A model generated the notes under the pieces. That model worked only from the letters and a program-made list of their open reading frames with translations. It did not search any database and was not told where the DNA came from. The position numbers were made by a program, and so were the translations under genes. From the NCBI GenBank assembly GCA_050084515.1, contig CM114271.1, positions 31,558,001 through 31,622,000 on the forward strand: DNA of 64,000 bases, read 5' to 3'. The stretch's first letter is position 1; each line of letters starts with the position of its first letter. The DNA is from Blasia pusilla (Eukaryota). Positions 1,267 to 54,690 of this stretch are shown piece by piece.

Positions 1267-3255
1267 GCTCATTCTCTCTTTGTTGAACCTCTTAGCATAA
1301 GGAGGCGGAGCTATGGTCCTCCTTGCCTTATGTGTGGAATCCAAGCCTCTCATTAAGAGAGTGGGTTTGGTTTGACACGAGAGAGAGTGCACACCATGGA
1401 GAGCTTGGTATGAGAGCTTGTTGGTGTTGATGAGAGATTCCACTGAGAAAATGAGTGAGTGAGAGAGCTTCAATGGAGGAGCTCGCTAGTCACTCGCTAT
1501 TGGTGCACGTTGGGGACCATGTTCCCCACTCAGCGGCTCAAGGGAGTGCTCATTGGAGCAAGAGCCGCTCGATCTTGCTGTTTTCATCGCCAATTTTTCG
1601 TGTGAGAGAGTGGCACGCGGAAGCGTTGCAAAAATTTGGTTGGCAATTGAGTATGGGGGCGGTTTTCCCCACGCTCTTGGGAGCACCTTGTAGCTTGGTG
1701 GTTGTTGTGTTTATAGGTTTGCAATTTCTGTTGGGAGAAATCAGGGCGGAAGCGCTGCCAAATTTCTTGTAGGATAGCAGATATATTAAAGGGCTCTACC
1801 ATACTCCTTGTCAATTTTTATTGGAAGGTCCGATTGAAAAGAAATTTTGGATGTTTTCGTAGATCGTAAAGCTGTGCAGTGCACGCTGTGCAATTTGGAG
1901 CTATGAGCAAAAAGTTATGACCAATTTTGCAAACTGCCAATTTTTAGGGTAAAAATTGTCAAACGCTATACCAGCTGTTGCCGTCACTGTCATCGCCGTC
2001 ATTGTTTCCGTCGCTGTCTACGATGACGCCATCGCTGTCCGTGCCATCGCTGTGTGCGTTGTTTGCCGCTGACATTTGGCGCCTCTGCCCCTCTTGTTGC
2101 TCTTGCTGCTGCTTGCCGCCACCGCCGCTTGTCGCCGTTGCCTCCACCAGTCGTCGCCGTTGACGTCAACACGAGATGTCACCGCCCGTCGCTGCCCTTG
2201 TCATCGTCGTTACCGTTGCTGTTGCCGCCGCCATTGTTTAAGACTACGTCCACCCGCCGAAACTGCTTAAGGCCAGGTAGGGCGCGGCTGCTGTACTTGG
2301 TGAGTCCATATGAGTCGTCGCCACTTGCTAACTCGCGACTTTGACAAGGTGACCTTTTTGGATTCATGGGATCGCAATTTCTTTTCCACTTTGCTATGTT
2401 GTGATTGGTAGCCGCTCGACAACGATTGAGTACCATGTCGTGGCGCTTGTAGCCGCAACACACCGCTGATTGCCGCACCGTCCCGCTCGTGGCCGCACCG
2501 CATCGTCTCGATCGCGGAGCCACTCCATCACTGGGGAGCAGATTGTGTTTCTTTGAATGAGGAGAGTATGCCGTTGAGTGCCGCACTGCATTCCCAAGAG
2601 ACGTGCCGTTTGTAGCCATTTTGTGCCACTAGAACCGCACTGTACTACAAGACCCGCACCGCACATCGTGGAGATTTGAGCATCGTCAATAACAGAGGAG
2701 TACGACTTGCTGGTTGGCTGGTCTTCACGACCGAGTTGGGGTCGAGATTTGCAGTTGCTGAGGAGCAACACAGAAATTTATTCAGGTTATCCATTCTGGT
2801 CTTTTTCCCTACACGTGTTAGGGATTTCGAGGTATTGGGTAGTTATTTGGGATATTGGGTTTTGTGCCGATGTTGAGAGCATCATTAATGTATGGGTTTA
2901 GGGGGCATAGACCTGTGTGGGATGTCCTGTTGATGAGATGATAGGATAGTAACCCAATGCCGCACCATGCCGCTTGTTGCCGCACAACATACGTCTAAGT
3001 GAGAGAGAGTGTAGATTGAGTGCTGCATGTTTAGTTTGAGTTGTTGAGTGATTACTTGCGAGATTGAGAGTGAATGTGTAAGAGGGGCACGAGGGTCATC
3101 ATGGACACCTCGCGAGATGGACGACCGGGGTAGAGGATCACGTAGGTTTTCGGTTTAGTTTTTCCAAAGTTTAGGAGTTGGTTTGACTCACATCGAGCCA
3201 GGAACTCCATAGAGTTTAACCCGTTTATAGCATGGAACGGAATGTTTAAGCTTCT
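1267..3255 (+). mobile_element. 5' part of a family copy (copy 3): partial LTR-B, long leader and deleted gag start
   Basis: Reverse-complement similarity to ~32110-34333, e.g. GCTCATTCTCTCTTTGTTGAACC, GCCGCTCGAC/TAACGATTGAGTACC, and the gag piece AGGAACTCCATAGAGTTTAACCCG. Confidence 0.88.
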
Positions 3256-3399
3256 TCCTCTCACTACATAAGAAATTATACCCCTTTTTAGACTTGATCG
3301 ACTTTAAAAGCTTATCTTTGAGAATTTGCACCAAATCAATTTTTTCAACATCCTCTCTATGATAGACATTCTCTAGCACTTATCAAGTGTGTATGCGTC

Positions 3400-4300
3400 C
3401 ATGCGCGAGTATAAGAGTAGGGACATGACTTACTACAAATCTCATTCTTCTATTTTTAATTCCTCGGGGTATATTACTATAGTCTCAACAACTCTTTGAT
3501 TATGCTTTGGACTTCCTCATTCTTCTCTAAGAAGTATTTTGAGTTGTGTATTGGGAGAGCCCATTGATACAAAGGGTATGCAGTGCTATGCACATTGTAG
3601 AGAACGAACGATGATCCATGATGTGATTATAGAGGAGGTAGCATCGATCGCTCATACTACAAGGTACACCATTGGGCAAAAGCAACTATATCCGTGTATA
3701 TGTCCTACCTTCTACTACACAAAAAACCTCTCGTCAAAGAGTTAATCTTGTTATGTCTTGAGATGGTTTTAAATTTTTCTATTGGGTGGTAAGATGGTAG
3801 CTGATCCAACACATTCTAGCTTGGTGTGTCAGGATGCGCATACTAAAGGTTTTATCGTCAATTAATCAAGGAGTTAAATTATGCGATGAGACATATGATC
3901 GATGGATTTATTATTTTTGCAGTGGAGGTATTTGAAAATTTATATGTGTTTTTTGATACTTTCTTGAAAATATGTGCTTATCATTCCCTCGAGAGCCATC
4001 ACCTTGCCCATTGTTATAGTCCTTCTCCCTCCATAGTCACTACTAATTTTTGGAAATCCATAACGATGGCTCTACAAGGTGCATAAGCTAACTTTGAATC
4101 AGATGTTGGTACGTCGAGTCGAATGGTTGGGGTCAGTGGGTCACTAACCTCGTAGTACCTCACCAACCACATCCGACCAACCGCCAATATTCTTGAAAAT
4201 TTTGTTTCAATTTGTGATCTTTGTAGAGTTGGTTTTTGGGTGCTGCCATTTATTTGGCATTTCTTCCTTTCCTTCTTGGATGTTGTTTATTCATTTAATA
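3400..4300 (+). mobile_element. 5'-truncated 3' fragment of a CRE-like RLE non-LTR retrotransposon
   Basis: Similar to 53700-54650: CVLGEPIDTKG.QCYAHC zinc motif, RQRVNLV, RHMIDGFIIFAVEVF...FDTFLKICAYHSLESHHLA. Confidence 0.8.
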
Positions 4301-7300
4301 ATAGAATGGATGTTACGTAAACCGGGTGCTGTTTCCTTCAAAGGACCATTAAATATCTTAAGATTCTATTTATGTAAGATTCCTGCTAGAGTACTGGTTA
4401 CTACAATTTCGTTGTTTTGCCCCCTTAACACATAAATTGTGGTGGTCCGAGCTCTACCATGCCTTCCCTTTAGCTGGTTTTGGGCTGGGCTGCCCGACGA
4501 AATGCAGGAAGAAATTTCGAAGAGAGCGCACCATGTAGCACAGTCGGATCGGAGGACGCCGAAGACACACGAAGAAAAGGTATCGCGCTAACTTTAAGTT
4601 TTATAGACTACTACTGTAGGTGTATAGTGGGCTCCTGCTCACGAACAACTGTTCTGGCACACGCGAGCAGATAAGGCAGTGGCCAGCCATGCGCGTGATG
4701 TGCAAGGCGCAATGGTGAAAGGAGAGATAGTGAGAAATTGATCTATTTGAAAGCAACAGGAATTACCAAGGCGAACATCCCACGCGTATACGAAGGGGTG
4801 TACAATCTGAGTCTCTCCCGAAGCCAACGAGTGAAGGTAAGGAGTGTACCCTTGTCACGGAGGCCAACCACGTTGTCATTCATGGTTCGGTTTTTAACGT
4901 GGATAAGGTGAGGTATCTCCCTTCCCCGCAACGGTCTGCGTTTAAGCTGTGCGCCGGTTGCATGGTTTGCGTGCCTGTCGTAACGCGAAATGAGCATGTC
5001 GTCGAATTTTGTTCAACTTAAAGGCTTTCTTTGAAATTCCTTGCGCTTTTTGTGACATCACAAAGGCCTATCGGAGGCCTGATTCCCTATCCTTTGAGCT
5101 GTGACGTATTTTTCTACTTCTCGCGACTTGGATGTTCATGGAGGAACTGGTCGTTGATTCCAATCCTTGCTTCCATACACCATGATTAGAGCTGCGCATT
5201 GACTCCTGCAATTTCAGTACGTGCCGCAGAGAATGCTGGTCACTGGGGGAAAGTTGATTCGAGCGCGAAGTTGTGCGTCTGCATCTGATCATCCAAAATC
5301 CATGATATCCAGAAAATCTGGCCTGTTTTATGACAAAGGATACTGCCTGCAGCTCATATATGAATGATCGAAATCTTGGTTCACGATATGAGACGTCAGG
5401 AAATGAGATGTTCTCATTTGCCACTGGCTCCCAAGCTACTACGCGCACAAAGAACCTGGTTCCTAGAAATAATTTATACTCGCACTGATTGATGCATGCA
5501 TGGTTGTCTCTGGATCTGCCTCAGCTTAAACCCCGGAAATGCTTATCACAGTAAGATACCGTGGATCATATGTAAGATCTAGAGCACCTGTGGCATAATC
5601 CTGAATTCACGTGGAAAAGCAATGATTCACTTACTTGCAATCCTAACCCCACTGATTCAATTGCTCTGACTAATCTTTGTTTGCATTGTTCTCACAGTAT
5701 ACCACGATGAGAAGTGGGATCTTGTCTGGGCCTGATTCGTTCATAGTTCCTCATGAAGAACTTCATCCCATTGCTCGGATAAGTCCGAACTCGATGCCCG
5801 CGCATGGTGGAAACACCTTTAGGACACGGCCGGCCGAAACCTGGATAGTGTTCAGGAGTCTTCCTGTAACTATCTGTGACCAGATTGCACTGTCGCTATT
5901 GCGGTGATCAGAAAGGAGATCCTCACTTCGACGCCCTCGACCCTCATCGATCACGATAAAGGTTTTTCAAAGTACGGCAAGTTGGAAGTGATGGACAACA
6001 GGATTCACAGTCCACGAGCGAATACATGGGCACGCACATTCAGGAAAAAAATCAGAATCTCAATGTGAGAAGCTTTTCATATGCGATGCCACGGTAGAGT
6101 TCCTGGTAAATTAGATAAGTGTGCGTGGGGCAGCTCGGTCCACCAGTTTGGACTTGGGGCGGTCGTTGTTTAACGAGATTCTGATTTGTATTCGGTGCTC
6201 GTGATAGGACCCGGATACCTACAAGATAGACAATCATCCGTCATGATGTTAAGACGTAAAGCGTTTGCAGTTCAAGATCTTAGCACATACAGAACTTGAT
6301 TAGATTCTTTTTAACTCCAGTAGTTATAAACATTGGCCGAGACTCGCGCACCAGCTAGTCTAATACGTTCCGGACGTTCCTTTCCTGGCATAAGACAAGT
6401 TGTAGGCCACATTAGGACATTAGATGTACATTCCGCGCCTCGAGCTCTTGAGCTGGCGTGGGAAATGACAAGCTTCATCATCAACCCATTTTCCTGCCAG
6501 ATGAAAGATGCATTGACAGCTCTATTATTATGTCTGGAGTTGGAAATGGAGCGGCGATGCATTTTCAAGAATAAACGTATCCAATAGAAACTTGTTCTAA
6601 AGTGTCGGTCCAACCTCTAACATTGGGATCAGCTCGCTAGCTTGACAACGTCGAGAATCCTGGAAAGTCTGTCAGGCTTAATTAAGGTGCGACCCTCTGT
6701 CCCCGCAATTGTGACTCAGATCCTCAGCCATGCAGCGGTACGTCCTGGAGAGGAATTAACCCTCATTGAAAGTATCGTAGAAGTGGAGAGATGGAGTCAC
6801 CGGCAAGTTATCGACGCAAAAGTCGAGTCTGCCTGGGTGGATGGATCGACTGTTTTTTGCATAGTATGTTGGTAGCAATCGCGATCCTGCAACCCTTTGA
6901 ACGGACGCGCTTGGACGTTGTTTGATCTGGCAAACATGCTCACTGTTGCAATAGTTGTGAAAAGCAGGAACGCACGCACGAAGAAGAAGCTTTGGTGGGC
7001 TAACAACAAAAAATGATGGGTCTTAGACGTGACTCTCTAAGAGAAATCAAAGGTGCCGAGAAATCCACAATTCCAATACCAGCGATAATACTAAACTTCC
7101 GTGGTTCCAAGAATATTTGCGGAATCACGGGTTTCCACGTAGGGGCGTGTACTGGTCGATTTGGCCTAGCTTTCGCAAGATATGGATAGTGGTCAACATT
7201 AACATCACCACCATAGTTTTCACCATTACAATTTAGGTTTGTTATTATATCATAATTAGGTGACAAGTAGAATTTTATTGTGTCTACATCAAAGAAAGTT

Positions 7301-14019: not shown

Positions 14020-15530
14020 TACCATGAAACCACCGTTGACCTCCCAAGGTCGACTCTCTTTTGGTCATCCACATCGAGTGTTAGCACACGATTTCAAATT
14101 GTGGCAAAGAGAGCAAGTTGTGGCCCGCGGGTTGGGAATTAAGAGAGGAAGGTGCCCTTGTAATCAATGCAAAGGGAGGACTTATCTATCTCTCCATAGG
14201 GTAGAGGAGCATGTGAAAAAGTTTGACCGGTTTCATCTCTTTTGCATCCCAAAGAGTAGACATGAGTGGGATCCTATAGACAAATGTGACATGGGAATTG
14301 ATGATAACCAATTTCGGAACTTGCACAAGCATGAAAGCCCCTTTTTCCTCAGGCAAGGACATCCATTTTAGGATTTGTGATGTTGCTTCTCAATGTTTCC
14401 GTTACCCACAACTTGCCAAACATTGCAGTCGATAAGTTTTTAAAGCTTCTAGGTAAATTGGTCCTTCCAAGAGGAAAAAATGTTCCACATAGTTACTATG
14501 CGGCTAAGAAACTTATAGGAAAGCTTGGATTGAGTTACAACTCATATCATGCGTGTCCTAGTGGATGTGTGTTGTTTCGTGCAGATTTGAAAGATTTTAC
14601 TTCTTGCCCAAAGTCCCAGAAGTCTCGGTTTAAGCAAGTAGGTAAGTCGTTAGTACCATGCAAGGCACTTCAACACATCCCCATCATCCCAAGGATGCGG
14701 CAAATGTTTAGATGTCCCACCTTATCAGAATTGTTGGTGTGGGCATCATGTAACAAGAGCTAGGATGGGATGGTTAGACATACATGTGATAGCAAAGCAT
14801 GGGCTCGTGTTGATGAAACTTACCCTGAATTTGGAGAAGAAAAAAGAAATTTTAGATTTGGGTTAGCTCTTGATGGGGTTAACCCCTTTTCAGATAAATT
14901 CAGTTCTTGGTCAACATGGCCAATTTTACCAGTAAATCATAACTTGCCTCCTTGGTTGCAAACCAAAAAAAATCTTTGTTATGCTTGCACTCCTTATACC
15001 TCGGAAGGAGAGTGTGCACGGAGGGAAAATCAACACCTATCTTGCCCCATTAGTTGAGGAGTTTGAAGAGTTATGGCAAGGTGTGGTACTCCATGATGTT
15101 CAGAAACCCCATGGGCACTCGAGTTTACCTTTAATTCAATGATTCTTTGGACTATCAATAACTATCCTACACTAGGTACTATATCTGGGCAAAGCCACGG
15201 TGGAAAGCTTGCATGTACCATATGCGGGCCTAGGGTGGAATCAGATTTTTCCAAGGAGTGTGGCAAACCCATTTTTGGCGGTCATCAACGATACTTGCCT
15301 TCCTCTCATCCATGGAGAGGCAAGATGTATGGCATCCATTTTAATGGTAAAGGGGAAGCAAGACCACCACCACAAAGGGTTACAGCAAAGGAGATTTTGG
15401 CATGGGCCAAGGAGAAGAAAAAATATGACGAGAGTGGGGAACGAGAAGATGGTCCTTTTGATCCATACAAAAAAATAGGAGTAAAGAGGAGGAGTTTGCT
15501 CTTCGATTTACCTTATTGGCAAGTATCCAA
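14020..15530 (+). pseudogene. CACTA Tnp2/TnpD-type transposase, disrupted and C-terminally truncated
   Basis: RCPCNQC motif, HACPSGCVLF...SCPK, IPIIPRMRQMFRCP, DSKAW...RNFRFGLALDGVNPF...STWPI...NLPPW, LWTINNYP...ACTIC, GVKRRSLLFDLPYW. Broken by stops and frameshifts. Confidence 0.92.
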
Positions 15531-15578
15531 GTAACTTACTTACCTTAGGTTCTTACTACCAAAAAATCTTATTGTGGC

Positions 15579-16295
<717 letters not shown>

Positions 16296-16389
16296 GCGCT
16301 ACCGTTGCGGCTCCCGACTATTTGACTACTCGGGAAAACTAGGGTTTTTACCTATTTTCCTTTGTTTTTATTAATAGAAAAAATTTGTG

Positions 16390-23893: not shown

Positions 23894-24332
23894 ATAAAAA
23901 CCAATTTTCTTTCTAGTGTATACGGAATCATAGATAGTGTGCGATTGTGAGAAGTCTCAATTAAGATCGTGGTTGCAATTGCAAAACTAGTCACACTACA
24001 ATTGCACAATGTGCACTCACAAAGCATGGTCATAAGACAGCTTCAAATTTGAAATTTTGACTTTTAAGACACATGCAAGAAACAATAATCCCTTGTAATG
24101 GACGCAATGTATAATATTTTAAATTATACAAAGAGTCTCAAAGACCATTTGCATTGAAAGATTATTGTCTTTTCTTCATGTGTCTATTTATCTCCATTGA
24201 ATTTTTTATCTCAAATCTTTTATTAATTTCGACATTCCTTCTAATCTAACTGTTAGGAGAAATGGAGGAAATTTATATTATTCATCACATAAATTTCTCC
24301 CATTCCTCCTACTTGAATATTAACATAAGCAG

Positions 24333-25078
24333 TGTCGTGCGCATACACATCGTTACACAACGTACATCGCTGTCATCAAACACACACATAAACACACACG
24401 ATCCCATGTTAACTCATATGATCCATACATAGAGGCGAGAACTACCAAAATATCTCCAATAAAGTAAGATCCAATCTCTCTCTATACCATCTCACACCAT
24501 AGCTCTCAAAGGTGTGCACTCTCTCTCATGTCAAACCAAACCCACTCTCCTAATGAGAGGCTTGGGTTACACTCATAAGGCAAGGGACCATAGCTCCGCC
24601 GCCTCATGCTAAGAGGTTCAACAAAGAGAGAATGAGCTTTCAAGCTCTCTCTCCTTGAGGTATACCCCTCCCCTCTCCCAAGCTCTCTCCATGGTAACCT
24701 ATTCTCCCAAGTCACCTCCTTGGCTCTTTACCTTATGTAGGAGGTCAAGAGAAACTTGCCAAAAATAGAAAGTCAATCATGTACTCAAAATGGTACTTAC
24801 CTAAAATAGTAAGTTCCTCAATATGGCTCCAAATGAGCCGAAACGAAGAGGAAACGTGCTCTCTCAGGTTTCGCGGGGCCTCAACAGGTCATCCCCGACC
24901 TCCTCCATAACTCATGCAGACGTTCTGCTAGATCCCACCGATCTATCCTAATAGTCGTGCGGATACACATCGCTACACAACATGCATTTCTGTCATCGAA
25001 CACACACATGAACACACACGATCCCATGTTAACTCATGGGATCAATACACAGAGGCGAGAACTACCAAAATATCTCCA
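24333..25078 (-). repeat. 3' terminal repeat block A-B-A (complete LTR 25078-24460 followed by an extra A)
   Basis: The ~125-bp A copies at 24333-24458 and 24954-25078 are near-identical. The ~500-bp B matches 34154-34669. Confidence 0.93.
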
Positions 25079-25080
25079 AT

Positions 25081-25090
25081 CTCCCCCCTA
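25081..25090 (-). other. Polypurine tract
   Basis: TAGGGGGGAG on the minus strand, then AT, then TGGAGAT at the LTR start. Equivalent to 621-630 in copy 1. Confidence 0.85.
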
Positions 25091-25266
25091 GTTGGTGGTT
25101 AGGTCCCTCTAACTCCAGATAGCCATCTATCCCTACCTACCACGACATACATCTCTAGGACGCTAAGAGCAGAAAGGTCGGGTGCTCATGTGGCCCCATC
25201 GTTAGTCGCCTTCCTGTCATCCATGTCACAGAAAAAGTCGGAATCGAAACCTACCTAGTATCTCCT

Positions 25267-26420
25267 CTATGTACATTTGGGACACATCCATCGTTTCCGA
25301 GGAACCCTAGTGACAGATGGCGTCAGACATGCCATATGCCAACCTCTCGAACATCCATCACATACTAGCATCGTGGCCACACCACGAGCAAAACCACACA
25401 ACATACAACGCAAGCCTGCATGAACTACTGCTGAGCTCGGATCTACTATACCATCAATGTTAGGAAGGTGACATGGCGCACAATTACACAAATGGTCCTT
25501 CCATACCATACCATCGCATCCCTCCAGAAAGAGAACACCGGATGGAAAAACCTCACGCACTCTCAAGATAGTGCGCCCTGCAATCATATCCAACGTCGTC
25601 GGTGCCATCAACTGGAAGTAGATATAATCTCCTTGATGAAACCTCCGGATAGTTGGTCGATAACCACCACCCCGAATAGTCGCATACCTCAACGTATCTC
25701 GGTGTTGAGCAATCGCCAAGTTCTCGAACGCCATGGCATCACTCTCTGAAACAACTCAGCCCTTTGAGAACATGCTCGCATCCATACATCTGGGTCATCA
25801 AGGTCTAGCACCTCACTAGCATCTCGACAAATGGCCGCAGGTAAATCTGGCTCTTGGCCATAAAGTAGCAAGTACGGTGAAAAAGACGCTAAGGATGCCT
25901 GCCTGTTGAATCTATATCCTCTCGCCAGCCATGGCAACTGTAGGTCCCAACCTCCTAGGTGACCTCTCTATAAGCCATACTTGCGTAAACCCCTCTTCAC
26001 CGTCTGCACAACTCTCTCCGCTAATCCATCCAGCTTGGGATGATCTCGCAAAGTCGTGCGGTGGTCGATCAGCGCCTGATCACACAAGGCCTGGAACTCA
26101 CCGCAAAATTCGATACCCTGGTCTATCAACACCTCAGCCGATGCGCCATAATGACTCAGCACTCTGTCAAGGAAGGCATAAGCTACTCCCTCACTCGCTT
26201 TGTCAGGCAATGCAACCAACTCGATCCACTTCGAGAAGTGCTCGACCATCACCAACACATAACGACTGTGACGCTCCGTCAAAGGCAAAGGTTCTGCAAA
26301 ATCCAAACTCCATCTATACCCTAAGCATGCCTCGCCACCAATACTGAATCTGGAGCAAGTTGTACGTCCGCTTCACCCCAAAGTGACCCAACTCCTCGTG
26401 GGCATGTTGCACTAGTCATG
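25267..26420 (-). pseudogene. DDE integrase with C-terminal PHD finger
   Basis: HEELGHFGVKRT (HH; the CC half appears deleted), DFAEPLP, VMVEHFSKW, IDQGIEF, DGLAERVV. PHD: CMLCGF...VCDGCSRGWHMACL...WMCPKC. Confidence 0.93.
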
Positions 26421-26682
26421 CTCTTTGCAAAGGATGCGGCACTACGTGTACTCTACCATCCTCCCAAACCCTCAAAACATGTGTCCCCTCCCAACGGAAC
26501 CGTTTTGCCCGTTGTAGGATCCTATCCCGCTCTCTAGCACCCACGGTGCTGGCAACGCTAACAGTATAAAGGTACTCCAAGACTACTCCATCATCATGAA
26601 TATCTCGGCCACCTGTCGTCTCCTCACTTGCCTCGGGATCCAAGGACTCTACACTAGACCTCGCCATCGAAGTCTCCACACT

Positions 26683-28240
26683 CTAGCTCTCCATAGCCAA
26701 CATGCCTAAATAGGCTGACGCATGCCATTGTGGCATTGACTCCTCATCACTCTCTCCATGCCATCGAGCTCCAGTCGCATCTCGCTGACTCGGGCATGGG
26801 TTACGACTCAACCCATCTGCATCATGGTTGAGCATCCCAAGTCTATGTACCACTTGAAAATCATACTCTTGCAACAACAGAGCCCATCTCGCAAGCTTCC
26901 CTGTAAGCTTGTCGTACTCCATCAACCACTTCAATGGTTGATAATCAGTGATGATGGTAAAGGGGTTGCCGAATAAGTAACACTTGAAATGCGCGATAGC
27001 CCATACTGCAGCCAAGCACTCACCCTCATACGAGTTGTACTTCGCCTCTGAAGCGTTGTTTGAGCGGCTAACGTAAGCCACCACAAACTCTCTATTCTCA
27101 TCATCATGCTGGGTGAGCACCGTTCCAAGCCCCAACATGCTCCAATCTATGTGCAACTGGAAAGGACGCCCCCTGATCGGTCTCCTCAAGATGGGCGCGG
27201 ACGTCAACTTGTCCTTGAGCAATTGAAATGCTCACTCTTGCTCATCCCCCCTGTGCCACTCGTGATCCACCTTGGTCAGCAAGGTTAGCAGCTTTGCAAT
27301 CGAACTGAATCCCTTGACGTACCGCCGATAGAAGTTCGCCAATCCCACGAATGCGCGAACACGGCTCACATTTGTAGGGCGTGGAATGCGTGAGATAGCC
27401 TCTACCTTCGTCTGTTGAACACCAAGGCCCCCTGGGTATATTGTATGACCCAAGTACTCAATCTAGTCGTAGAAGAACTTGCACTTGCCTTGATGTAGCT
27501 TCAGCCCATGTAATTGCAATCGTCGAAACACCTCCTCTAGATGTCGCTCATGCTCCTCAGTCGTGGCGCTAAAAACTATAATGGCATCAATATAACACCT
27601 AGCAAAATCCATAGCAGCCAAGATCCTATCCATGACGCTCTGAAACTCAGCCTGGGCGGTCTTTAACCCAAATGGTAAGAACAGCCACTGGTACAAACAA
27701 TCCTTCCCGTGAGGATCGATGCTCCAAAATGCCGTCTTCTACGTGTCCTCCAATCTGATAGGCAGTTGGTGGTATCCGGCTCGCAAATCCAATGAACTGA
27801 AGACCTTTGCAAGACCAATTGCATCAAATATCTCCTCAAGGGTGGCCATGGCATACCTATCGGACTTCGTGTGCCGATTGATAGATCGGTAATCCCCACA
27901 CATCCGCCTATCCGTCCAGTTGCCATGCACATCCTTCTTGGCGGGCTTGACAGTGGCAGATGCATACTCCCCATGCAACATCTCCACTAGTCCTGCTCCA
28001 ACTAAGTCATGGCTCCTTCTCTGAATCAGAGCCCTCTCCATATCACTGTACCTGTAGGGTCGTCGTAAGATCGGCGTATCACTCAACAACTCAATGCGGA
28101 TCCCCGATCCCTTCAGCGTACCCAAATCCTCCATGCTAAACCCAAAGCAGCTCCTATAAATCTTGAGGAACTGATGTATTCGGCGCCGCTCTCCTCCTGT
28201 CAACTTAGGGACCATATTTGGCTCCCAAGTCTCCATCGTG
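26683..28240 (-). pseudogene. Reverse transcriptase and RNase H
   Basis: RMCGDYRSIN, FSSLDLRAGYHQL, PFGLKTA, YIDAIIVF (YxDD mutated), KCKFF, VRAFVGLANFYRRYV. RNase H: HIDWS, YEGECLAAVW, TDYQPL, DADGLSR. Confidence 0.96.
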
Positions 28241-28569
28241 ACTACTGTAGGACTCTCCGGCGCGGATATCGATGGTTGCTATGGTGCAACCCCGTCTCAA
28301 ACAACAACACTCGACCGCTCTCCTAGAGCCAACTGCAAACTATGATTTCTTCCACATGCAGTGCCCGGAACCATGCTCAATGTTGTGGCTATCATCTCCT
28401 GGCCTACCTGCAAAACATCCCAAGAAGTCCAAGGATGTCTCTCCCAATCTCCCTTGGTGTGTCAATCTCCTCGGCTCTCGCCCCCAGCCACTCGGTAGGC
28501 ATGGGGATCACCAACGCAACCGCTCTAATCTGTCGCGATCTCATCTGACGCTACTCAGCCACTCCCAAG

Positions 28570-29500
28570 CTGAAGATCCATATCAAGCAGTTCAGGTCCA
28601 TTTCCTGACCCAACACATGGCGTCGTGATGCCTCTAATACTGAGGGTACCGCCGTCACTCATGTGGGAAATCCCATTGCCCGCTCTCTCTTGTCGGCGTT
28701 GGGCTCCACCAACCTCTAAACCTTTGTACCTGGTCATCCTTGTATGCATAGGAAGCGGGAAAACTCACAAACATGGGAAAGGCTGCCCGCGGCTTGCCTA
28801 CCCTGTAGACCACAGTCAACGGTGGTCGATCATCGTGCCTCACTGCCTGTGAGCGACGACTTGGATCCAGAATGGAATCCACTAACAAATGGGAGGGGCG
28901 CTCCACTCTTGCATACGCCCTCCGTAACATCGCATGGGGCACCAAGTTGGTCCACCATAGACGCGGGCGATGGGCTCTAGAATCTACACTCGCCGCATCC
29001 AAGAACATTACAGGGCTGATCCATGCACGCACCTGATGAGCACTTGTCACCACCCGTGACCTGGAGTCTCCTAAGATCAGTACATTCTCCAGAATGTAGG
29101 CTGGAGAACGAGAATAGTGCTCCTGCAATTGCCGTAAGACCCTCAACATCTCCCAAAATAACCTGGACCGAGTGTCAGCCAACCCGCTGCCTCGTCCAGC
29201 ACTTGATTGGCCTTGACATGGCTAATCGAAAATGACCAAATCAATGGTGCCTAACCGGTCTAAGTCCTGCACCCCCAACAACAAAATATCCCTCGGTAGG
29301 GAACTCTGGTACCCCTGTACCGCGGACGCAGAAAATAAGTCGGGAAAATATAGGCGTAAGTGCGCCACATGTCGTAGTGAGACGCACCTCGTAACATCAT
29401 CACTCTCCACATACAGGTACTGCTGCACTCGCACCCCAACTTGCAAAACAACAGCTAACCCAGTGCTAATCCCTCCAAAGAGATCTAACACTCGAATACC
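28570..29500 (-). pseudogene. DNMT3-like C5-cytosine DNA methyltransferase domain inside pol
   Basis: Motif I IRVLDLFGG; motif II YVESD; motif IV IDLVIFD*PCQG (catalytic Cys codon 29216-29218); motif VI YILENV; motif VIII DAASVDSRAHRPRLWWTN; motifs IX/X RERAMGFP...RRHVLGQEMD. Confidence 0.93.
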
Positions 29501-29869
29501 CTCCTCTGGGATACACCACACAATGGATGTGGTATCCAAGGGTGTTATCGTAGCACTCCCTGCTACCTCGGGTTCCTCAGATCCGTCACGCTCTGTGCAA
29601 ACGCCTTGCTCCACGCGGTCTACACGTGCTCATGTGCCAATCGTCGAAGCTCCTCAATCGAGCTCCTCAGTCGAGCCCCACAACGACACCTCTCCTCCAC
29701 GGAATGATGCGCTACCATAACACTCCTCTCCATAGAAATGTCAGGAACGGGAGTATCCTCTGCATGGACATGTCCCTCAATCAAATCACTAGGCCAAGTG
29801 ATGGCAATGCTAAATGCTACTAAGGTCGCCACCTCTCCTGGCCGTCGCTCGATCACTACACCTGTGAAT

Positions 29870-30260
29870 CAAACTGGTAATGAGCTAAGGCGCCTATCAC
29901 CTGACTGCCATCCAGGTCTGTAGGACGCTGACTCCTCCCAGTAATCCAAGGAAAACCCCATCGGGTATAACACTGCTCCACCAACCAAGACATCGTAGGA
30001 CTCTGCATGAGTCACTATTGCATTGGCTCGCACCACGGACTCATTTGTAGGATGTCCCGGACAAATCCTTACCACGACCTCCTTTCGGGTGATATACTAT
30101 GTGGTACTCGCTCCACCAAGGATGTCTGTATCCAGAATGGACAACGCTCCACATCGGCTCTCGTCAAGCCCAATCCTCTGAATGACGCTTTCCCCAACAT
30201 CAGGGGTTGTGCTCCTAAATCCAACAAGACGCGCTGCGGACTAAAATATCTACCTCGGGA
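29870..30260 (-). pseudogene. Retropepsin-type aspartic protease
   Basis: Manual translation gives PQRVLLDLGAQPLMLG (D-S/T-G-A box with S>L; Asp codon 30219-30221) and a downstream YDVLVGG box. Confidence 0.8.
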
Positions 30261-30699
30261 CTCACCAACTGGAAGACCGCTCCTTGGTTATCCAGCAACA
30301 CAACACCAGGAGAAGCCATGGCACGCTCTATCCCGGGTCTATCGAGCATCTCCGCCATCCTAGCAGCCGCAGCCTGCCATGAATCTGACATGGACGGCCC
30401 GAGTATCCGCTCCAAGGGCAAGTCCATCACCTCCTCTACAATCACCTCTGAACGTGATGAAGGAACTCAAACTCCGCGCTCACATAGTGAAGCGGCCAGC
30501 CGAAAAGCCTCGGTGGGCGTACCCCCCAACGTCATAACATCGGAAGCAGAAAATAAAAGAGTGCGGTACACAACGGTGGCCGCCCCCAACAACGTGCTTG
30601 ACACATGCCCCTCCTGAGCATCAATAATAGGAATCATCGCACTCACTTCTCCCATTGCCCTCCGTGCCTGCACACCAACAACATCACCAACTCTCCAAG

Positions 30700-32485
30700 A
30701 ACTCATCAGGACCCATCGATGGGGTCCTCATCGCCTCGGACAACGTGAAAGACTGAGGAAGCCTAGTCTGTTTCCTCGCTCCCCCTCGCTGTGGATCCAA
30801 CTCTACGGCTGCTCCACGCGTCACAACTGTGGCTGCCTCCATTTGGGCAACCCCGCACATCCAACCAGGATCCTCTTGATCTCTCGCTGCTCCATATGAT
30901 GTCGCTGCTACGGATCCGGCATCGGGTAACCTCAATGCCATAACGGCAATTTGCTCTTGTAGCTGCTGTATCTGAGCAGCCATCCCAGCCTAACGTCCGG
31001 CGTCTCCCTCGGCGCGTCTAGGTGGTGGTACTCTACCTCCTCCATGGGCAGCTTCACCACCGTGTCGGGAAACTCTAGTTCCTCGTCCCCCAACGGCACC
31101 ACCTAGTGCACGATCTCTAGGCCCACCTGGACCGGATACTCGCTCTGGTGCCCTCTCTGGCCCTCGGTCCGGACGTAACTCAGGATGTAAACTTAAACAT
31201 CTGGTGTGTGTATGACCATACCTCTAACAATAGTCACATTGATAACCTCCTAGTGCATGTATGACCATACCTCTAACAATAGTCACATTGATAACCTCCT
31301 GGTGCAGCACCATCTCCTCCTCCATGCTGAAGCACACGTCCATGACCCTAACGAGTGCAATCGCGCTGATGATGGGCTCCACCACATGACCAACAAGTAA
31401 TAGTAGGCGGCTGCTACTGGGCCGCATATGAAGGCACAGGTCTCTGTGGCACGGCCCCTTGGTATCCTCCCTGAGCTCGTGGTGCCACAGTCAACCTATC
31501 TCGAAGTCCACGTTGCTGCACAGGTAGTGCAGGCAATCGTGACTGCTCTCGTCCAGAACCCATGACGGCTACGCTCTCCTCCTCCATGTTGCGCTCAATG
31601 TTCTTGGAGGTCCTTAAAACATCTCTCAACATAGGGGAGGTGTTCATAAGAAGCACCTCTCCCATACCCGTGTCCGCAACGTCCAATCCAGCATCGCGTA
31701 CCATGATTGGATAGCCTGAGCCTCTATCACCCCCTGAGTGACGTTGATCAACCGGCACAAGCGAGTGTAAGCCTCACGCAAACTCTCACCCGGGCGCCTC
31801 TGGAAGTCGTGGATGCTCCGCAACTTCTCCGTCTGTACCCCCTGGTAGCTCGCCCTCAACTGAGCAAAGAACTCAACCACAGGGTTGAACTTGGGACAAA
31901 CCCGACTAGACGGTGCAACTGCTCCCGTGCGAGTGACCCCTCCTAAAATGTCACTACTGGAAGAGGAAGTAGCCTCTCTTGACTCCTCCTCCTCATCTGG
32001 GAACTGCTCTGTCCATGACACATAATGTGGGTCATAGTAGAGCCTCCACGCCTCGATCTCACTTGCATATCTCTGAGAGAACTCATGGTAATCGTCCATG
32101 GGCGCCCCATCTAAATGCTGGAACATACCGTTCCATGCTGTAACGGGTTTAACTCTCTAGAGTTCCTGGCCCGCTGGGAGTCGCACCAACTCCTAAACTC
32201 TGCTATGAAATCGTGCAACTCAATCGTGCCTACTGCACTTGAAAACCTACGCGGTCCTCTAACTCGGTCGTCCATCTCGTGCGCCCAACTGGTAGGACCA
32301 CTCACAATGTGTGGCAATATGCTCACAAACTCCTCTACACGCTCCCCCTCGTCTCAAGACGACACAGAAGGAGATCGAGGTGGTCTCTCACGTGGAGACC
32401 CTCTAAACCTCACACCACTCCGGGTAAACCCTCCAGAGCTACTCTCACGTCCACTACCTCGCCTCTCAAAATCCTGAAAGGACAT
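30700..32485 (-). pseudogene. gag with two zinc knuckles
   Basis: ATG at 32485. Capsid-like FQRRPGESLREAYTRL. Knuckles CWSCGGAHHQRDC (~31355-31395) and CDYC*RYGHTHTRC (~31198-31240). Confidence 0.85.
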
Positions 32486-34153
32486 CGTGATGGCCCTCGT
32501 GCCCCTCTCACACGATCACTCTCAACCTCACGAGTAATCACTCAATCACTCATCCCAAACATGCCGCACTCGATCTACACTCTCCCTCCCCGAGACGTGT
32601 AATGTGCGGCAACAAGCGGCGTGGTGCGGCAAATCGACCAGGCTATCATCTCATCGAAAACCTACCCTCAACTCCAGACATTCCACACAAGTCTATGTCC
32701 CCTAAACCACTTACATGAATGATGCTCTCAGCATCCACACAACCCAATATCCCCAAATAAACTACCCAAATCCCAGAATCCCTCCCGTGTGCAGGGTAAA
32801 GGACCAGAATGGGTAACCTGAAGACATGTCGATGTCGCTCCTCAACAACTGCAAATCACAACCCCAACTCGGTTGTGGAGACAACTCCTCCAATCAGCAA
32901 GTCATACTCCTCCCATACTGACGCTGCTCAAAACTCCTCGATAGACAGTGCGGTTCTAATGGAACGGTGCGGCGTTGCAGGCGACACGGAACAGCTACAA
33001 ACGGCACGGCCCTCGATGGTGGGATGCAGCACTCGGCGGCATACCCTCCCCAATCAACAATAAACCCACACTCTGCTCCACAATGACGGTGCGGCTCCGC
33101 GATCGAGACGGTGCGGTGCGGCCACCAACGGTAAGACGCGGCAATTGGCGGCGTGTTGCGGCTACGGGCATCACGGCACGGTACTCAATCGTCATCGAGC
33201 GGCTACCAATCACAACATAGCAGCATGAAATCAAAACTCAAACACCATAACCAGAGGTCATCTGCCATCACTGGTTGACGATGAAACTTCGATGACGGTG
33301 GCGGCCAAAACAAAGTACGTGGTGGCAACACAAGTCAGAGAATCAACGAACGTCGTGGAAGACCCTCCACTCCGTAATGGCGGCAATGGCAACCAAAGGG
33401 TGGACAACAGCCGAATGCGGCTCTGAGCAACATTGGGCAACAACACCGGCCGACGGTGGCCAGTGGACGGTGATGGTTGCCCATTGATGGTGACGACGGA
33501 CCACTAATGGTGACGGTTGACCATTGATGGTGACGGTTGACCGTTGACTGGTGAAGGTGACTATGACGGCATCAGCTGCCACCGGCGTGGCGGCTGGTTT
33601 AGGGTTTGAACAATTTAACCCTAAAAATCGCCTAACACTGGCAGTTTTTCAAGATTGATCATAACTTTTTATTCGCAACTCCAAATTTAGCTTTATTTGT
33701 TGCACAACCTGCACAGCTTCACGATCTACGACAACTTCAATCAATATTTGGAATTGGACATTCCAGTAAAATTTGACGGGGAATGTCGTGAAGCCCAATG
33801 TCTCTTGCTCCTACACAAAATTTGGCAACGCTTCCGCGCTGATTTCTCCCAAAAAAATGTAAAACCTGTAAAAATACAAATCAGCAAGCTACATGGTGCT
33901 CTCGAGAGCACCGGCATGGGGCAACCCGCCCCCATAATCAATCCCTATCAGAAATTGGGCAACGCTTCCGCGCGCCACTCTTCCACACGAAAAATCGGCA
34001 AATGCAAAGAACAATCAAAGCAGCCCTTGCTCCGGTGAGCACTCCCATGAGCCGCTGAACGGGGAACACGGTCCCCAACTTGCAAAAACAGCGAGTGACC
34101 AGCGAGCTCCCCCATGAAGCTCTCTCACTCTCTCATTCTCTCATTTCTCTCTT

Positions 34154-34669
34154 TGTAAAGTAAGATCCAATCTCTCTCTACACCATCTCACACGATAGCT
34201 CTCAAAAGTGTGCATTCTCTCTCATGTCAAACCAAACCCACTCTCCTAATGAGAGGCTTGGGTTACACTCATAAGGCAAGGGACCATAGCTCCGCCGCCT
34301 CATGCTAAGAGGTTCAACAAAGAGAGAATGAGCTTTCAAGCTCTCTCTCCTTGAGGTATACCCCTCCCCTCTCCCAAGCTCTCTCCATGGTAACCTATTC
34401 TCCCAAGTCATCTCCTTGGCTCTTTGCCTGATATATGAGGTCAAGGACCACTTACCAAAATTAGAAATTCAATCATATATTCAAAATGGTACTTACCTAA
34501 AATAGTAAGTTCCTCAATATGGCTCCAAATGAGCCGAAACGAAGGGGAAACCTGCTCTCTCAGGTTTTGCGGGGCCTCAACAGGTCATCCTCGAGCTCCT
34601 GGGCCTGTCCTCCACTACTCGTGCAGACGTTCTGCTAGATCCCACCAATCTATCCTAACAGTCATGACA
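34154..34669 (-). repeat. 5' terminal repeat (segment B only; starts TGTCATGAC, ends TTTACA)
   Basis: High identity to 24460-24959. Segment A is absent upstream of it. Confidence 0.93.
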
Positions 34670-34770
34670 ATAGATACAGGTCACACAAAACAATCACAAA
34701 GTACATGCAAAACACTTGCACAAGGCACACTCACAAATCATGACTAATTGGTGCCCAACTTTCAAGTTTA

Positions 34771-34820
34771 TGACCCATATTACTTGCAAAGTAATATTAC
34801 TTGCAAAGTAATATGGGTCA
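34771..34820. repeat. 50-bp near-perfect palindrome with an internal tandem duplication
   Basis: TGACCCATATTACTTGCAAAGTAATATTACTTGCAAAGTAATATGGGTCA. Confidence 0.9.
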
Positions 34821-43609: not shown

Positions 43610-44700
43610 AAGACCCTTCATGTGTCGTTGAATTTGATCTCTACTCAAGGCTTTGGTGAAGATATCTACATGGTTATCTTCCGTTTAACAATAGATTAAC
43701 TTCAAAACTTCTCTCTTGATTAACTCACCAAAAAATGATATTTGATCTCTATGTGGTTCGTATGAGTATGAAACTCATGATTATATTCTATAGCAATTCA
43801 ACTTTGAATGTCATACCATATTATAATAGCACTTTCTGTTGCTTCTCCTATGTCCTCTAATATCCATCTCAACCATAATAAGTCACATGAAGCACATCAA
43901 GCCATGTTGTAATCCACCTCGGTAGAAGAAGAGCCATTATAGATTGCTTCTTACCGATCCATAATACCACATTTGATCCTATCGAGAAGCAATAATCCGA
44001 AACTGATCGCCAAGAATTTGAGTCTCTTGCCCAATCTGATTCACGAAAGCCTGTCATTTTTGTCCCTACTCTGTAGGTGATGCCATACTTCATAATGACT
44101 TTGATGTACTTCAATACATGTATCCCTGCCTTCCAATAATTCTCATGAGGCTTAGTTGAGAACCTACTCAACACACCCACATCAAAATTGATGTCTAGTC
44201 TTGTGTTGCACAAAGATATCAAACTGCCCACAAGCTTTCTATACATCTTTTCATATACCAATGGTGAAACAACCTCCATTGAGTTTCAACTCTACCTCCA
44301 TTGGTGAGACCACTTCCTTACACTCAGTCATCTTGAATGCCTTCAAGATTTCTCTACCATACTTTTGCTGAGAAAGAAAATTAGAATTTGACTATTGCCA
44401 AATCTCGAGGCTGATAAATTAAGTAATGCAAAAGACCTAAATATGACATTTCAAACTCAGATCTCAACACTTCCTTCATTTCCTCTATTTTCTTACTATG
44501 GCCTCCTGTGATGATGAGATCATCCACATACAATATTATCAACATATACATCATTGATTCCCATCTTTGCAAAACATATACATATTTGCTTCTGATAGAC
44601 TCTTGATGAGACCCTTTTCTTTGAAGAATGTATCTATTTGTTGATACCATATCCTAGGGACTTGCTTAAACCTATATAATGCTCAATAAAGCAAACATGG
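43610..44700 (-). pseudogene. Ty1/Copia RT-RNase H remnant
   Basis: ILYVDDLIITG, FEMSYLG, YRKLVGSL...TRLDI, SDWARD, HIEIKYHF, DIFTKAL. Confidence 0.92.
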
Positions 44701-51699: not shown

Positions 51700-54690
51700 A
51701 GATCTTGCCATTTTCCTCCATATACTTATACATCCATTAAACTCGTTACATTTCTTGCAAATTCTCCTCTTCTCCCCTCTTTGTCTCGTCCTATTGAGCC
51801 TAATCTTGATCCATTATTATCGAATCCTAGTACTTTTTCATCCTCACATATCTCATATGTGCCCTTACTTCCAACTCCCTTCTATTCTACCCTTATCTCC
51901 CCTCTACCTCCTCCTCCTTCCCCAACTTATTTACCCCCTCATCATCATCCATCACCACCTCATGCACCTCCCACCTCCTTTACTTGTAACCCTTCTACTT
52001 CTCCATTTGTCCCAAAGGTTTGTTGCATACCTTGTGGTAAGGAGTTTGCTCCTGATGGGATCAAAAGACATAAAAAATATTGTCGATCCATGCATGGGCC
52101 TTCAATCTTTAACCCAAAACGCTCTTCATCCTCCTTCAAGTGGTGATGCATAATCTTTTGTGGAAGACTATATATACAACAGATCTTGACTTGGAGATTT
52201 TCACAAAGGATTTTCTTCATACTCCTCCTATATGAACAAGCAGGCTATAAGAGATGGTTTTTTAGCATCTCCGCGATTGCTTTATCCCAGCAGATTCAGA
52301 AAGTGGCTTTGTCTCTCTATATAAGATGTGTGCACATATTGCGGCAGGTCGTCTCCCATTCTCTATCTCTAGGCTCTTAGGGGCTTGTTGTTTATTGGCT
52401 ATGGATAAGCCTGCTTCAGGTGTCCGCCCTTTGGCTATTGGAGAGGTTTTATACCGCTTGGTTAGTCGATCCTTGTGCTTGCAATTTCGTCCTCACTTTA
52501 GTGCCCACTTATTTCCTGATCAATTTGAAGTGGCAACCCCTCGTGGTTGTGAGGTTGTGGTGCATGGGATTCGCTCCACTTTTGATACTCATCCAGAGTG
52601 GGTGGCAATTCAAGTAGATGTGGCTAACGCATTCAATTCACTTTCTCGTGCGGCCATCTTTGAGGAGTTACGTTGTGCAAGAGGAGAACTTGCGAGTCTC
52701 ATTCCATTTTTCTGCTCCTTCTATCTCTATGATACGCCCATTATCTATTCTCATCATGCTACTTTCGGGGAATATAGTATTCTCCAATCAGCTTGTGGCA
52801 TGCGTCAAGGTGATCCCATGGGGGGCCCACTCTTTGCCATTGCCCATTTTTGTGCCCTTTGAGCATCAGCCCAAGCATTTACATCTTGTCTTGTCCCTCC
52901 TATTGCTAATGACATTCACATTATAGGTACTCCTTCTGAAATGGTTCTTGATTATATCCATTTTGTGGAGCAACTCTCTTTCTTAAACCTTAAAGTCCGA
53001 CCTAGTAAATGTCGGGTATGGTCTCTTTCATGGCTTCCCTCAATATTCACTTCACCTGCTCCTGATTTTCCTATCTACATTGAAAGGGTTAGTGTTCTTG
53101 GGGTCCCAGTTAGCTTCATCGACTATGTCTCGAAGTTCTTGGATGAGGCCATTTTGAAATAGGTGGAATGGATTTATTTGTTACCTCATTTAGGGGATCC
53201 CCAAGTGGCTTATGGGATTCTATCCCAATGTTTTCTTTGCACTTGTCATCCCACTTCAAGGTTCTTACATCTGTTGGTATCTTTTGACGCTTCTATGTTG
53301 GCATCTTTTGGTCAGCTTCTTGGACATAATACTTTTGAGGGAGAGGATGGTGTCTTGGCTTCACGACAAGCTATCTTGCCTATTTCTTTTGGAGGGGTGG
53401 GGCTTTCCTCCGTAGTCGCATCTGCTCCAACCGATTTTTTTGGGAGTTGGGCGTTGGTGGCACTGATTATGGCTTCAAGGTTTCTCCAAGGAGATACACA
53501 CATCTTCATGGATCATGTCGCCCATACAGAGGAGGGAGACTTATTATTTCAACAACAACTAAGATCTTCCTGAGCTCTTCTTCCTCTTGCTACACAAGAA
53601 ATTCTACCCTCTTTCACTCAATTGATTTATGGAAGGGCTTGATTGACTTCAAGCACATATCTCCTGGAATTTGCCAAAATCAACTTTTCCAACATTCTCT
53701 TTGAGGCATCCTCTAATGCTCATTAAGCTTGTATGCGTTCATGTGCGCATACAGGAACGAGGGCATGGCTTATTGCAAATCCTCTTATTCTTTCATAATT
53801 TTTGTCTTCTTGAAGTATATTCTTGACAGCTTTGCGGTTACACCTTGGACTTCCCCGTATTTCTCTCTTAGGGGTGCCAAATTGTGTATGCGAAGATCCC
53901 ATTGATACAAAGGGTATCCATATTCTCCGATGTACACATGGTGGAGAATGAACGGTCACACGTGATGTCATTAGAGGCGATATCATTGGTGGCTCATACT
54001 ACATGGTACATCGTTAGGCAAGAACAACTCCATGTCCTACCTTCAACCATACAAGCAACCTCTCGTCGGAGAGTTGATCTTGTTATATCTCGAGGTGCAT
54101 TCCGGACACTAGGTAATATGGTGGTTGTTGATCCAACACTTTCAGACTTGGTGTGTATATGTGAGCCGCACGTACTAAAGGTTCGGCAGCCGAAGCAACA
54201 ACAAGAATCAAGGAGTTAAGTTTTATTGTGAGACATGCGACTGATGGACTTGATCCTTTTGAAATGGAAGTTTCCGGTCATTTACATGTGTCTTTTGATA
54301 CTTTCCTGAAAGCATGTGCTCACCACTCCCTCGAGAATCATCACCTTGCCCCTTCTCGTAGTCCTTCTCTCTCTGTAGTCACTATTTATTTTCGGCAATG
54401 CATCTCCGTGGCCTTACAACGTGTACAAGCCTTAGCATTGATACGTCGAGTGGAGGTGGTGGAGGGTCACTCGCCTTGTCGTATGTTCACGTCTGACCAC
54501 CACTAGTGTTCTTGTCACATTTGTTTCAAGTTATCAATTGTGTAGCTCGTTGAGTTGGTGTTTGTGTTGGCTAGTTTCCATTTTCTTTTTGCATTCCATT
54601 ATGCATTTTTTACTCCTCTTTTGAGATGTTATTACCTTTCTTCTTCCTCTTTGAAGTTTGTTTTGTAATACTGTGGATATTCTATTCTTA
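51700..54690 (+). mobile_element. CRE-like non-LTR retrotransposon (N-terminal Zn finger, RT, RLE endonuclease), disrupted
   Basis: CIPCGKEFAPDGIKRHKKYC; GVRPLAIGEVLYRL; QFEVATPRGCE; DVANAFNSLSR; GMRQGDPMGGPLF; IANDIH (catalytic box); LPISFGGVGL; CVCEDPIDTKGIHILRC; RRVDLV; DPFEMEVSGHL. The ends are approximate. Confidence 0.85.

Follow-up and report, generated by a model that had tools for sequence, protein, structure and literature searches.

A decayed Ty3/Gypsy-type retrotransposon of Blasia pusilla belongs to a high-copy family with a DNMT3-like cytosine methyltransferase domain

A 64,000-nucleotide (nt) stretch of Blasia pusilla DNA (assembly GCA_050084515.1, contig CM114271.1, forward-strand positions 31,558,001 to 31,622,000), referred to below as the window and numbered from its first letter, contains on its minus strand, at 24334–34666, a decayed Ty3/Gypsy-type retrotransposon that belongs to a family of high copy number. 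Members of this family encode a DNMT3-like C5 cytosine methyltransferase domain (DNMT), and sequence comparison indicates that the methyltransferase is an old, selected and family-wide part of the lineage. The first open reading frame (ORF1) encodes gag, an aspartic protease (PR) and the DNMT as the C-terminal domain; reverse transcriptase (RT), RNase H (RH), integrase (IN) and a PHD finger follow after a stop, in the same frame. Cytosine methylation is the main weapon of the host against transposons, and a transposon-borne enzyme of this type is thus counter-intuitive. The coordinates of all features of the element are collected in Table 1.

An earlier note on this DNA, made from the letters alone, had quoted seven motif strings of C5 methyltransferases. 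All seven were found in order on the minus strand (29491–28608), and they lie, as the note had placed them, between the protease and an RT frame that runs from 28278. The tblastn span of the domain (~29572–28494) is slightly wider than the range first given (28570–29500). The window sequence, with X in place of the stop, matches PF00145 at 36.7 bits (E 4.2e-9), and the ORF at 28655–29221 alone matches it at 30.9 bits (E 2.6e-7). Both scores exceed the cut-off of 22, so the motif series is more than a chance occurrence. The note had also read motif IV through a single in-frame stop. A TAG is indeed located there, but a frameshift and an in-frame TGA are present besides. Due to the frameshift near 28728–28736, motifs IX–X are out of frame with motifs I–VIII. 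The window copy is dead and can make none of the products proposed below for the family.

In order to assign the enzyme to a class, a profile of 11 family members was compared with all PDB sequences. DNMT3A (3.8e-14), DNMT3C (1.3e-12) and DNMT3B (1.1e-11) ranked on top, followed by DRM (3e-7 to 5e-5), HaeIII (2e-4), DNMT2 (8e-4) and HhaI (2e-3); neither DNMT1 nor CMT was found among the best 60 of 64 matches. The stretch around motif VIII was alignable to DNMT3 in the profile alignment. A first structure model, based on 11 sequences, reached a predicted local distance difference test (pLDDT) value of 52.5 and was not used. The predicted structure of the relative P0091, based on 47 sequences, had a pLDDT of 95.7 and a predicted template modelling score (pTM) of 0.92. 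Among the matches listed for this model by Foldseek, to rank 49, all were DNMT3A/B/C, the best with E 2e-21 and template modelling (TM) scores of 0.69/0.78 at an identity of 22–24%. By sequence and by predicted fold, the nearest solved relatives of the domain are DNMT3A/B/C, which upholds the likeness noticed at first. Motifs I–X follow one another in the canonical, non-rearranged order; the motif order of DRM is described as rearranged (PMC5890265). Six of the seven relatives scanned passed PF00145, as did the best-preserved locus L041 (49 bits, E 7.6e-13). Cellular DNMT3 proteins carry N-terminal PWWP and/or ADD reader domains. Here, the domain is part of a retroelement polyprotein, and Pfam found neither PWWP nor ADD in the polyproteins.

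The family is not confined to Blasia. Protein homologues at 45–65% identity numbered 39 of 2859 candidates of near length and 22 of 4600 longer ones; predicted proteins of Marchantia polymorpha, M. paleacea, Calypogeia fissa and two Sphagnum species are among them. The window is collinear, from gag through the DNMT, with intact ORF1 proteins about 1330 amino acids (aa) long. Scanning of metagenome contigs revealed 169 stretches that encode a relative, of which 80 were kept as loci for analysis. A profile was compared with 1.84 billion cluster representatives (clusters at 50% identity), which gave 5125 matches at E ≤ 1e-3, 309 of them at E ≤ 1e-30; the nearest cluster is annotated only as 'Streptophyta'.

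The domain order was typed with mapped domain probes in 304 DNMT-bearing proteins, the window order being defined by gag or PR before the DNMT or RT after it. This order was found in 57 proteins, 152 have the order RT-RH-DNMT-IN-PHD and 95 are untypable fragments. Named proteins with the window order come from Marchantia polymorpha (13), Calypogeia fissa (2) and Sphagnum troendelagicum (1), in agreement with the initial impression of a land-plant lineage: the named relatives with PR-DNMT-RT are liverworts and mosses. Named proteins with the other order are two 'pol' proteins of the chlorophyte Scenedesmus sp., with many unnamed environmental sequences besides. In such elements (e.g., 'pol' of Scenedesmus sp. 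PABB004), RT, RNase H, integrase, PHD and DNMT are all homologous to those of the present family, and the match to the family profile has E 1e-47 or better; unlike in the window order, the DNMT is situated inside Pol, between RNase H and integrase. In both orders, the DNMT is always accompanied by the PHD finger.

In the DNMT tree, a single branch splits the two orders, with one change among 175 typed rows; its Shimodaira–Hasegawa-like approximate likelihood ratio test (SH-aLRT) support is 95 in a tree of 54 rows thinned from 38 + 137. The tree of RT-RNase H (9 + 85 rows) gives the same split with a support of 100. These trees are unrooted and comprise element sequences only, without cellular plant DNMT3 or DRM, and do not tell gain from relocation of the domain. 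Two DNMT domains share a median identity of 45% if both are of the window order, 41% if both are of the other order and 36% if one is of each. Judging from the trees, the elements are one lineage with two domain orders.

The catalytic residues are conserved throughout the family. Of 207 near-full domains, 206 retain the catalytic Cys, 207 and 199 the Glu and Asn of motif VI (ENV), 204 and 206 the Arg pair of motif VIII and 206 the second Gly of motif I. Ratios of nonsynonymous to synonymous substitution rates (dN/dS) were calculated pairwise by the Nei–Gojobori method (NG86) on codon maps of the window and the 80 loci. For pairs with dS 1–5, dN/dS was 0.175 for DNMT (161 pairs), compared with 0.143 for RT (56 pairs), 0.18 for RNase H (61 pairs), 0.18 for gag (26 pairs) and 0.29 for PR (185 pairs). 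The measurement suggested for the DNMT domain thus points to purifying selection in deep pairs. Pairs with dS < 0.1 have values of 0.64–1.26 in every segment, which fits neutral decay after insertion.

In L041, a TAG (stop context 4509–4517) closes gag-PR-DNMT, with RT continuing in the same phase. The distance from motif X to the end of the protein is 70–100 residues in eight independent ORF1 proteins. At the corresponding site, the window and 57 loci were compared, and 49 of these 58 copies have TAR CAA YYN: TAG CAA CCC in 29, TAA CAA CCC in 15 and other variants in five; three more copies have TAG with the next codon changed. The tobamovirus-type leaky-stop context is UAG-CAR-YYA, and leaky gag-pol stops are also known in the gammaretrovirus form gag-UAG-pol. 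The TAG CAA CCA of the window and of L041 fits UAG-CAR-YYA, with the downstream ORF in phase, and the stop of ORF1 is inferred to be leaky. As in the known leaky-stop gag-pol systems, an in-frame UAG precedes in-phase enzymes, but the stop of the present family stands after PR and DNMT and not after gag. A sublineage (P0102, P0247) lacks the stop, has a shorter linker and carries a continuous PR-DNMT-RT-RH-IN ORF. Continuous ORFs of this type, for which a search had been proposed, do exist; the description of the DNMT as a part of the Pol polyprotein holds for these two, but in most copies the domain belongs to ORF1, with an in-frame stop between it and RT.

Reads of the source organism show that the element is abundant and that related copies are transcribed. 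In one Hi-C run, 295,643 of 12,895,792 DNA records (2.3%) fell on the 10.6-kb stretch 24200–34800 with at least 90% likeness. Three RNA runs of one study gave 3,342, 3,194 and 3,471 reads on the element, covering all of it. The first mate lay on the plus strand 10–50 times more often than on the minus strand, which under the usual stranded protocol means RNA in the sense direction of the element. Only 7–9 reads per run were at least 99% alike, so the transcribed copies are other copies than that of the window. A 31-nt skip at 27322–27354 was observed in 7, 14 and 9 RNA reads of the three runs vs one DNA read, which suggests a small number of transcribed source copies.

Taken as a whole, the explanation that we consider probable is that of a decayed Gypsy copy from a family with a gag-PR-DNMT3-like ORF1 and a presumably leaky stop, whose particle-borne enzyme would methylate the element's own DNA and whose integrase would be steered by the PHD finger. 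With a leaky stop, Gag-PR-DNMT would be the bulk product and the full fusion a rare one, with RT-RH-IN-PHD remaining at a low level. The enzyme would thereby reach the particle in amounts similar to those of Gag, and could methylate the new DNA of the element either inside the particle or at integration; methylation of its own cDNA, as proposed at the outset, is likewise a conjecture. The PHD finger may steer the integrase to particular chromatin.

Several points weigh against this explanation. Pfam aligns only the motif IV–VI part of the domain. Canonical motif X is GN, and in the family it is mostly GQ or GR. The majority stop context is CAA CCC, the last base not being the A of CAR YYA. Most copies are dead: three of the 80 loci lack a stop in the fully covered 335-codon DNMT segment, and an ORF of at least 400 aa of any kind is found in five of the 80. 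Deep dS values are saturated, and the deep pairs are not independent and represent few shared lineages. The unrooted trees are compatible with one capture of the domain as well as with two. The sense direction of the RNA presumes a dUTP-type library, and 2,844–3,083 of the 3,194–3,471 RNA reads per run are only 90–95% alike to the window copy. Finally, the domain of KnitGypsy-Dnmt3, an element of the alga Klebsormidium nitens, caused no methylation in yeast, a result that its authors judged inconclusive (PMC5890265).

Among the alternatives, it is possible, although we would not expect it, that DNA is methylated but the target is chromatin, i.e., the integration site or the integrated copy, with the effect of limiting copy number or mimicking methylated host DNA, perhaps guided by the PHD finger in the fusion protein. 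The PHD finger accompanies the DNMT in both orders, the RT-RH-DNMT-IN-PHD order sets the DNMT beside the integrase in one protein, and copies in K. nitens are reported to carry CHG and CHH methylation (PMC5890265). In the window order, however, the DNMT is part of ORF1 and would be joined to integrase and PHD only by read-through of the stop.

It seems unlikely that the domain was kept for a role other than DNA methylation, as an RNA 5-methylcytosine (m5C) methyltransferase with the genomic RNA or its primer as substrate or as a structural or nucleic-acid-binding module. The yeast result would agree with such a role, as would the deviating motif X, and RNA methylation was raised for a LINE element in PMC5890265. 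On the other hand, retention of the catalytic Cys, the ENV Glu and the RxR in 204–207 of the 207 domains makes a pseudo-enzyme unlikely, DNMT2, the RNA enzyme, ranks far under DNMT3 (8e-4 vs 3.8e-14), and DNA-bound DNMT3A/B is the best fold match. The broken state of the window copy would suit a single capture of a host DNMT3 gene or pseudogene, or a nested or chimeric insertion, with no family role, but this can be practically dismissed: other copies of the family possess the domain too, in the same place in 169 metagenome stretches and 57 polyproteins from several bryophytes, and it is collinear with intact ORF1 proteins and has a deep-pair dN/dS of 0.175.

The explanation by a particle-borne enzyme can be extended, tentatively and with more doubt than confidence, to an old and very diverse green-plant Gypsy clade, spanning chlorophytes, liverworts and mosses, with an active de novo methyltransferase and a PHD finger, whose bryophyte branch would have moved the enzyme to the Gag-level ORF, upstream of a leaky stop, so that particles would be loaded with it and the cDNA would be pre-methylated. 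If so, such elements, at about 2% of the genome, could add measurably to the methylation landscape of the host, and the presence of the family in Marchantia polymorpha would make this reading directly testable.

Retrotransposons bearing DNMT were said in the earlier note to be on record for Klebsormidium and Symbiodinium, and this is what PMC5890265 (de Mendoza et al. 2018) reports. KnitGypsy-Dnmt3, described there from K. nitens only, is the closest known system: like the present family, it has a DNMT3-like non-rearranged methyltransferase in a Ty3/Gypsy element under purifying selection (published Ka/Ks < 0.2 vs 0.175 here). The two differ in host, KnitGypsy-Dnmt3 residing in a charophyte alga and the present family having its relatives in liverworts and mosses, and in copy number (few in K. 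nitens according to PMC5890265 vs ~2.3% of DNA reads here). They agree in having DIRS-like repeats in place of plain LTRs, the arrangement being given as such in the Fig. 4c legend of PMC5890265 and being A1-internal-B1-A2-B2 here. The word PHD is absent from the text of PMC5890265, whereas the present family has a PHD finger and a DNMT that closes ORF1 before the in-frame stop. No protein named for K. nitens was among the protein matches of the family. SymbioDIRS-Dnmt3 of Symbiodinium likewise bears a DNMT3-like domain, and yeast experiments on the Symbiodinium elements demonstrated de novo CG methylation; it belongs to tyrosine-recombinase DIRS elements of dinoflagellates and is treated in PMC5890265 as an independent acquisition. 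As in chromoviruses (bioRxiv 10.64898/2026.05.21.726589), a chromatin reader is fused to the integrase C-terminus; that reader is a chromodomain, and in the present family it is a PHD finger (PF00628).

The main text of PMC5890265 contains none of the words Marchantia, Physcomitrella and moss. Retrotransposon DNMT3 'in streptophytes' is mentioned, with citation of that paper, in the text of PMC12344493 and of bioRxiv 10.64898/2026.05.21.726589. No report of DNMT-bearing Gypsy elements in bryophytes was found in the literature searched, including by Marchantia gene identifiers, with supplements and subscription journals outside the search. Retroelement-borne methyltransferases have been described so far, in this literature, from two algal groups only. 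The Gypsy-DNMT3 kind is already known from a streptophyte alga; the host range, the copy number, the position of the DNMT with its stop context and the PHD companion are new. The kind is widespread and abundant in land-plant relatives, including the genetic model Marchantia polymorpha. Two domain orders, a Gag-level position ahead of a leaky-stop-like signal, a PHD companion and a Marchantia host make it now approachable by experiment what the enzyme methylates and for whose benefit.

Table 1. Features of the retrotransposon copy in the window.
Feature	Position	Strand	Evidence or remark
Whole element, ~10.3 kb: A1, gag-PR-DNMT, stop, RT-RH-IN-PHD, B1-A2-B2	24334–34666	−	Repeats; tblastn alignment collinear with intact relatives; divergence at 24333 in DNA reads from other copies
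5′ repeat A1	34156–34666	−	92.2% identity to A2 over 511 columns
gag-like region	31644–32428	−	tblastn to P0069 residues 19–265, 44–51% identity
Aspartic protease region; LLDLGAQ at 30227–30207	29869–30287	−	tblastn to P0069, P0047, P0055
DNMT3-like C5 cytosine methyltransferase domain, motifs I–X, broken	28494–29572	−	PF00145; tblastn 62% identity to P0069
Motif I, VLDLFGG	29491–29471	−	
Motif II, VESD	29410–29399	−	
In-frame TAG immediately before catalytic PCQG	29222–29224	−	
Motif IV, PCQG	29221–29210	−	
Motif VI, (IL)ENV	29095–29081	−	
Motif VIII, AHRPRLWWTN	28975–28946	−	
Frameshift site, ~16 nt missing vs relatives	28728–28736	−	tblastn alignment breaks 28736/28727; RNA-read loose end 28737
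Motif IX, ERAMGFP	28685–28665	−	
In-frame TGA between motifs IX and X	28659–28661	−	
Motif X, RRHVLG	28625–28608	−	
ORF1 terminal stop, context TAG CAA CCA, RT frame in phase	28273–28281	−	Same in L041
Reverse transcriptase	27463–28278	−	RVT_1, E 1.5e-15
RNase H	26683–27231	−	PF17917, E 2.9e-33
Integrase core	25968–26372	−	rve, E 4.8e-13
Integrase C-terminal extension, PHD finger at its end (25267–25407)	25267–25755	−	PF00628, E 1.3e-9
Repeat B1, directly after G-run (polypurine tract-like)	24954–25080	−	
Repeat A2	24460–24959	−	
Repeat B2, outer element end	24334–24460	−	3205 loose read ends at 24333

RVT_1, RT_RNaseH and rve occur in the window in Ty3/Gypsy order, and L041 contains zf-CCHC, RVT_1, RT_RNaseH, Integrase_H2C2 and rve. 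Pfam gave no match on the gag and PR pieces of the window; a CCHC knuckle (zf-CCHC, PF00098) is present in L041, and the relative P0055 matches Asp_protease_2 at E 2.3e-4, under the curated cut-off. The decay of the window copy extends beyond the DNMT. The YxDD box of its RT is altered (27594–27568), and about 100 nt of the integrase are lost at 26325 relative to other copies, where blastn alignments break (26325/26324) and loose read ends are located as well. The observed/expected CpG ratio is 0.745 in the window copy vs 0.277 in L041, the values being inconsistent between copies.

The termini are split direct repeats of the type A1-internal-B1-A2-B2 and not plain long terminal repeats (LTRs); the integrase of the element is of the DDE type. 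A1 and A2 differ by 29 substitutions, 19 of them transitions, and B1 and B2 are 91% alike. A second B repeat beside A1 was looked for and not found. The same split layout was observed in L078 (6117–6444, 14514–15082) and L075 (1917–2209, 15510–15985), and a conserved G-run stands ahead of B1 in the window and in both of these loci. No convincing target-site duplication (TSD) or tRNA-type primer-binding site (PBS) was seen. Joints in DNA reads (34669→24333 and 24959→24333) were considered as signs of circles or tandem copies; this was rejected, as the B-A junction of every copy explains them.

The neighbourhood of the element is rich in remnants of other mobile elements. The 3′ end of a second element, with 76% DNA likeness, is located at 3–1415 on the plus strand and includes an integrase tail and PHD (3–554; PF00628, E 1e-11). 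Repeats of the B and A types come after it in mixed orientation, and it looks rearranged or nested. An ORF at 43869–44285 on the minus strand resembles, by eye, a Copia-type RT/RNase H fragment, with no match in Pfam. A fragment of a CACTA/En-Spm-type transposase was found at 15097–15534 on the plus strand (Transposase_21, E 1e-19), with ORFs from 13970. At 15485–16374, also on the plus strand, a long T-rich short tandem repeat reads as FIYL repeats in three frames. An RT fragment of another retroelement, non-LTR by eye, lies at 52266–52862 on the plus strand (RVT_1, E 1.6e-8).

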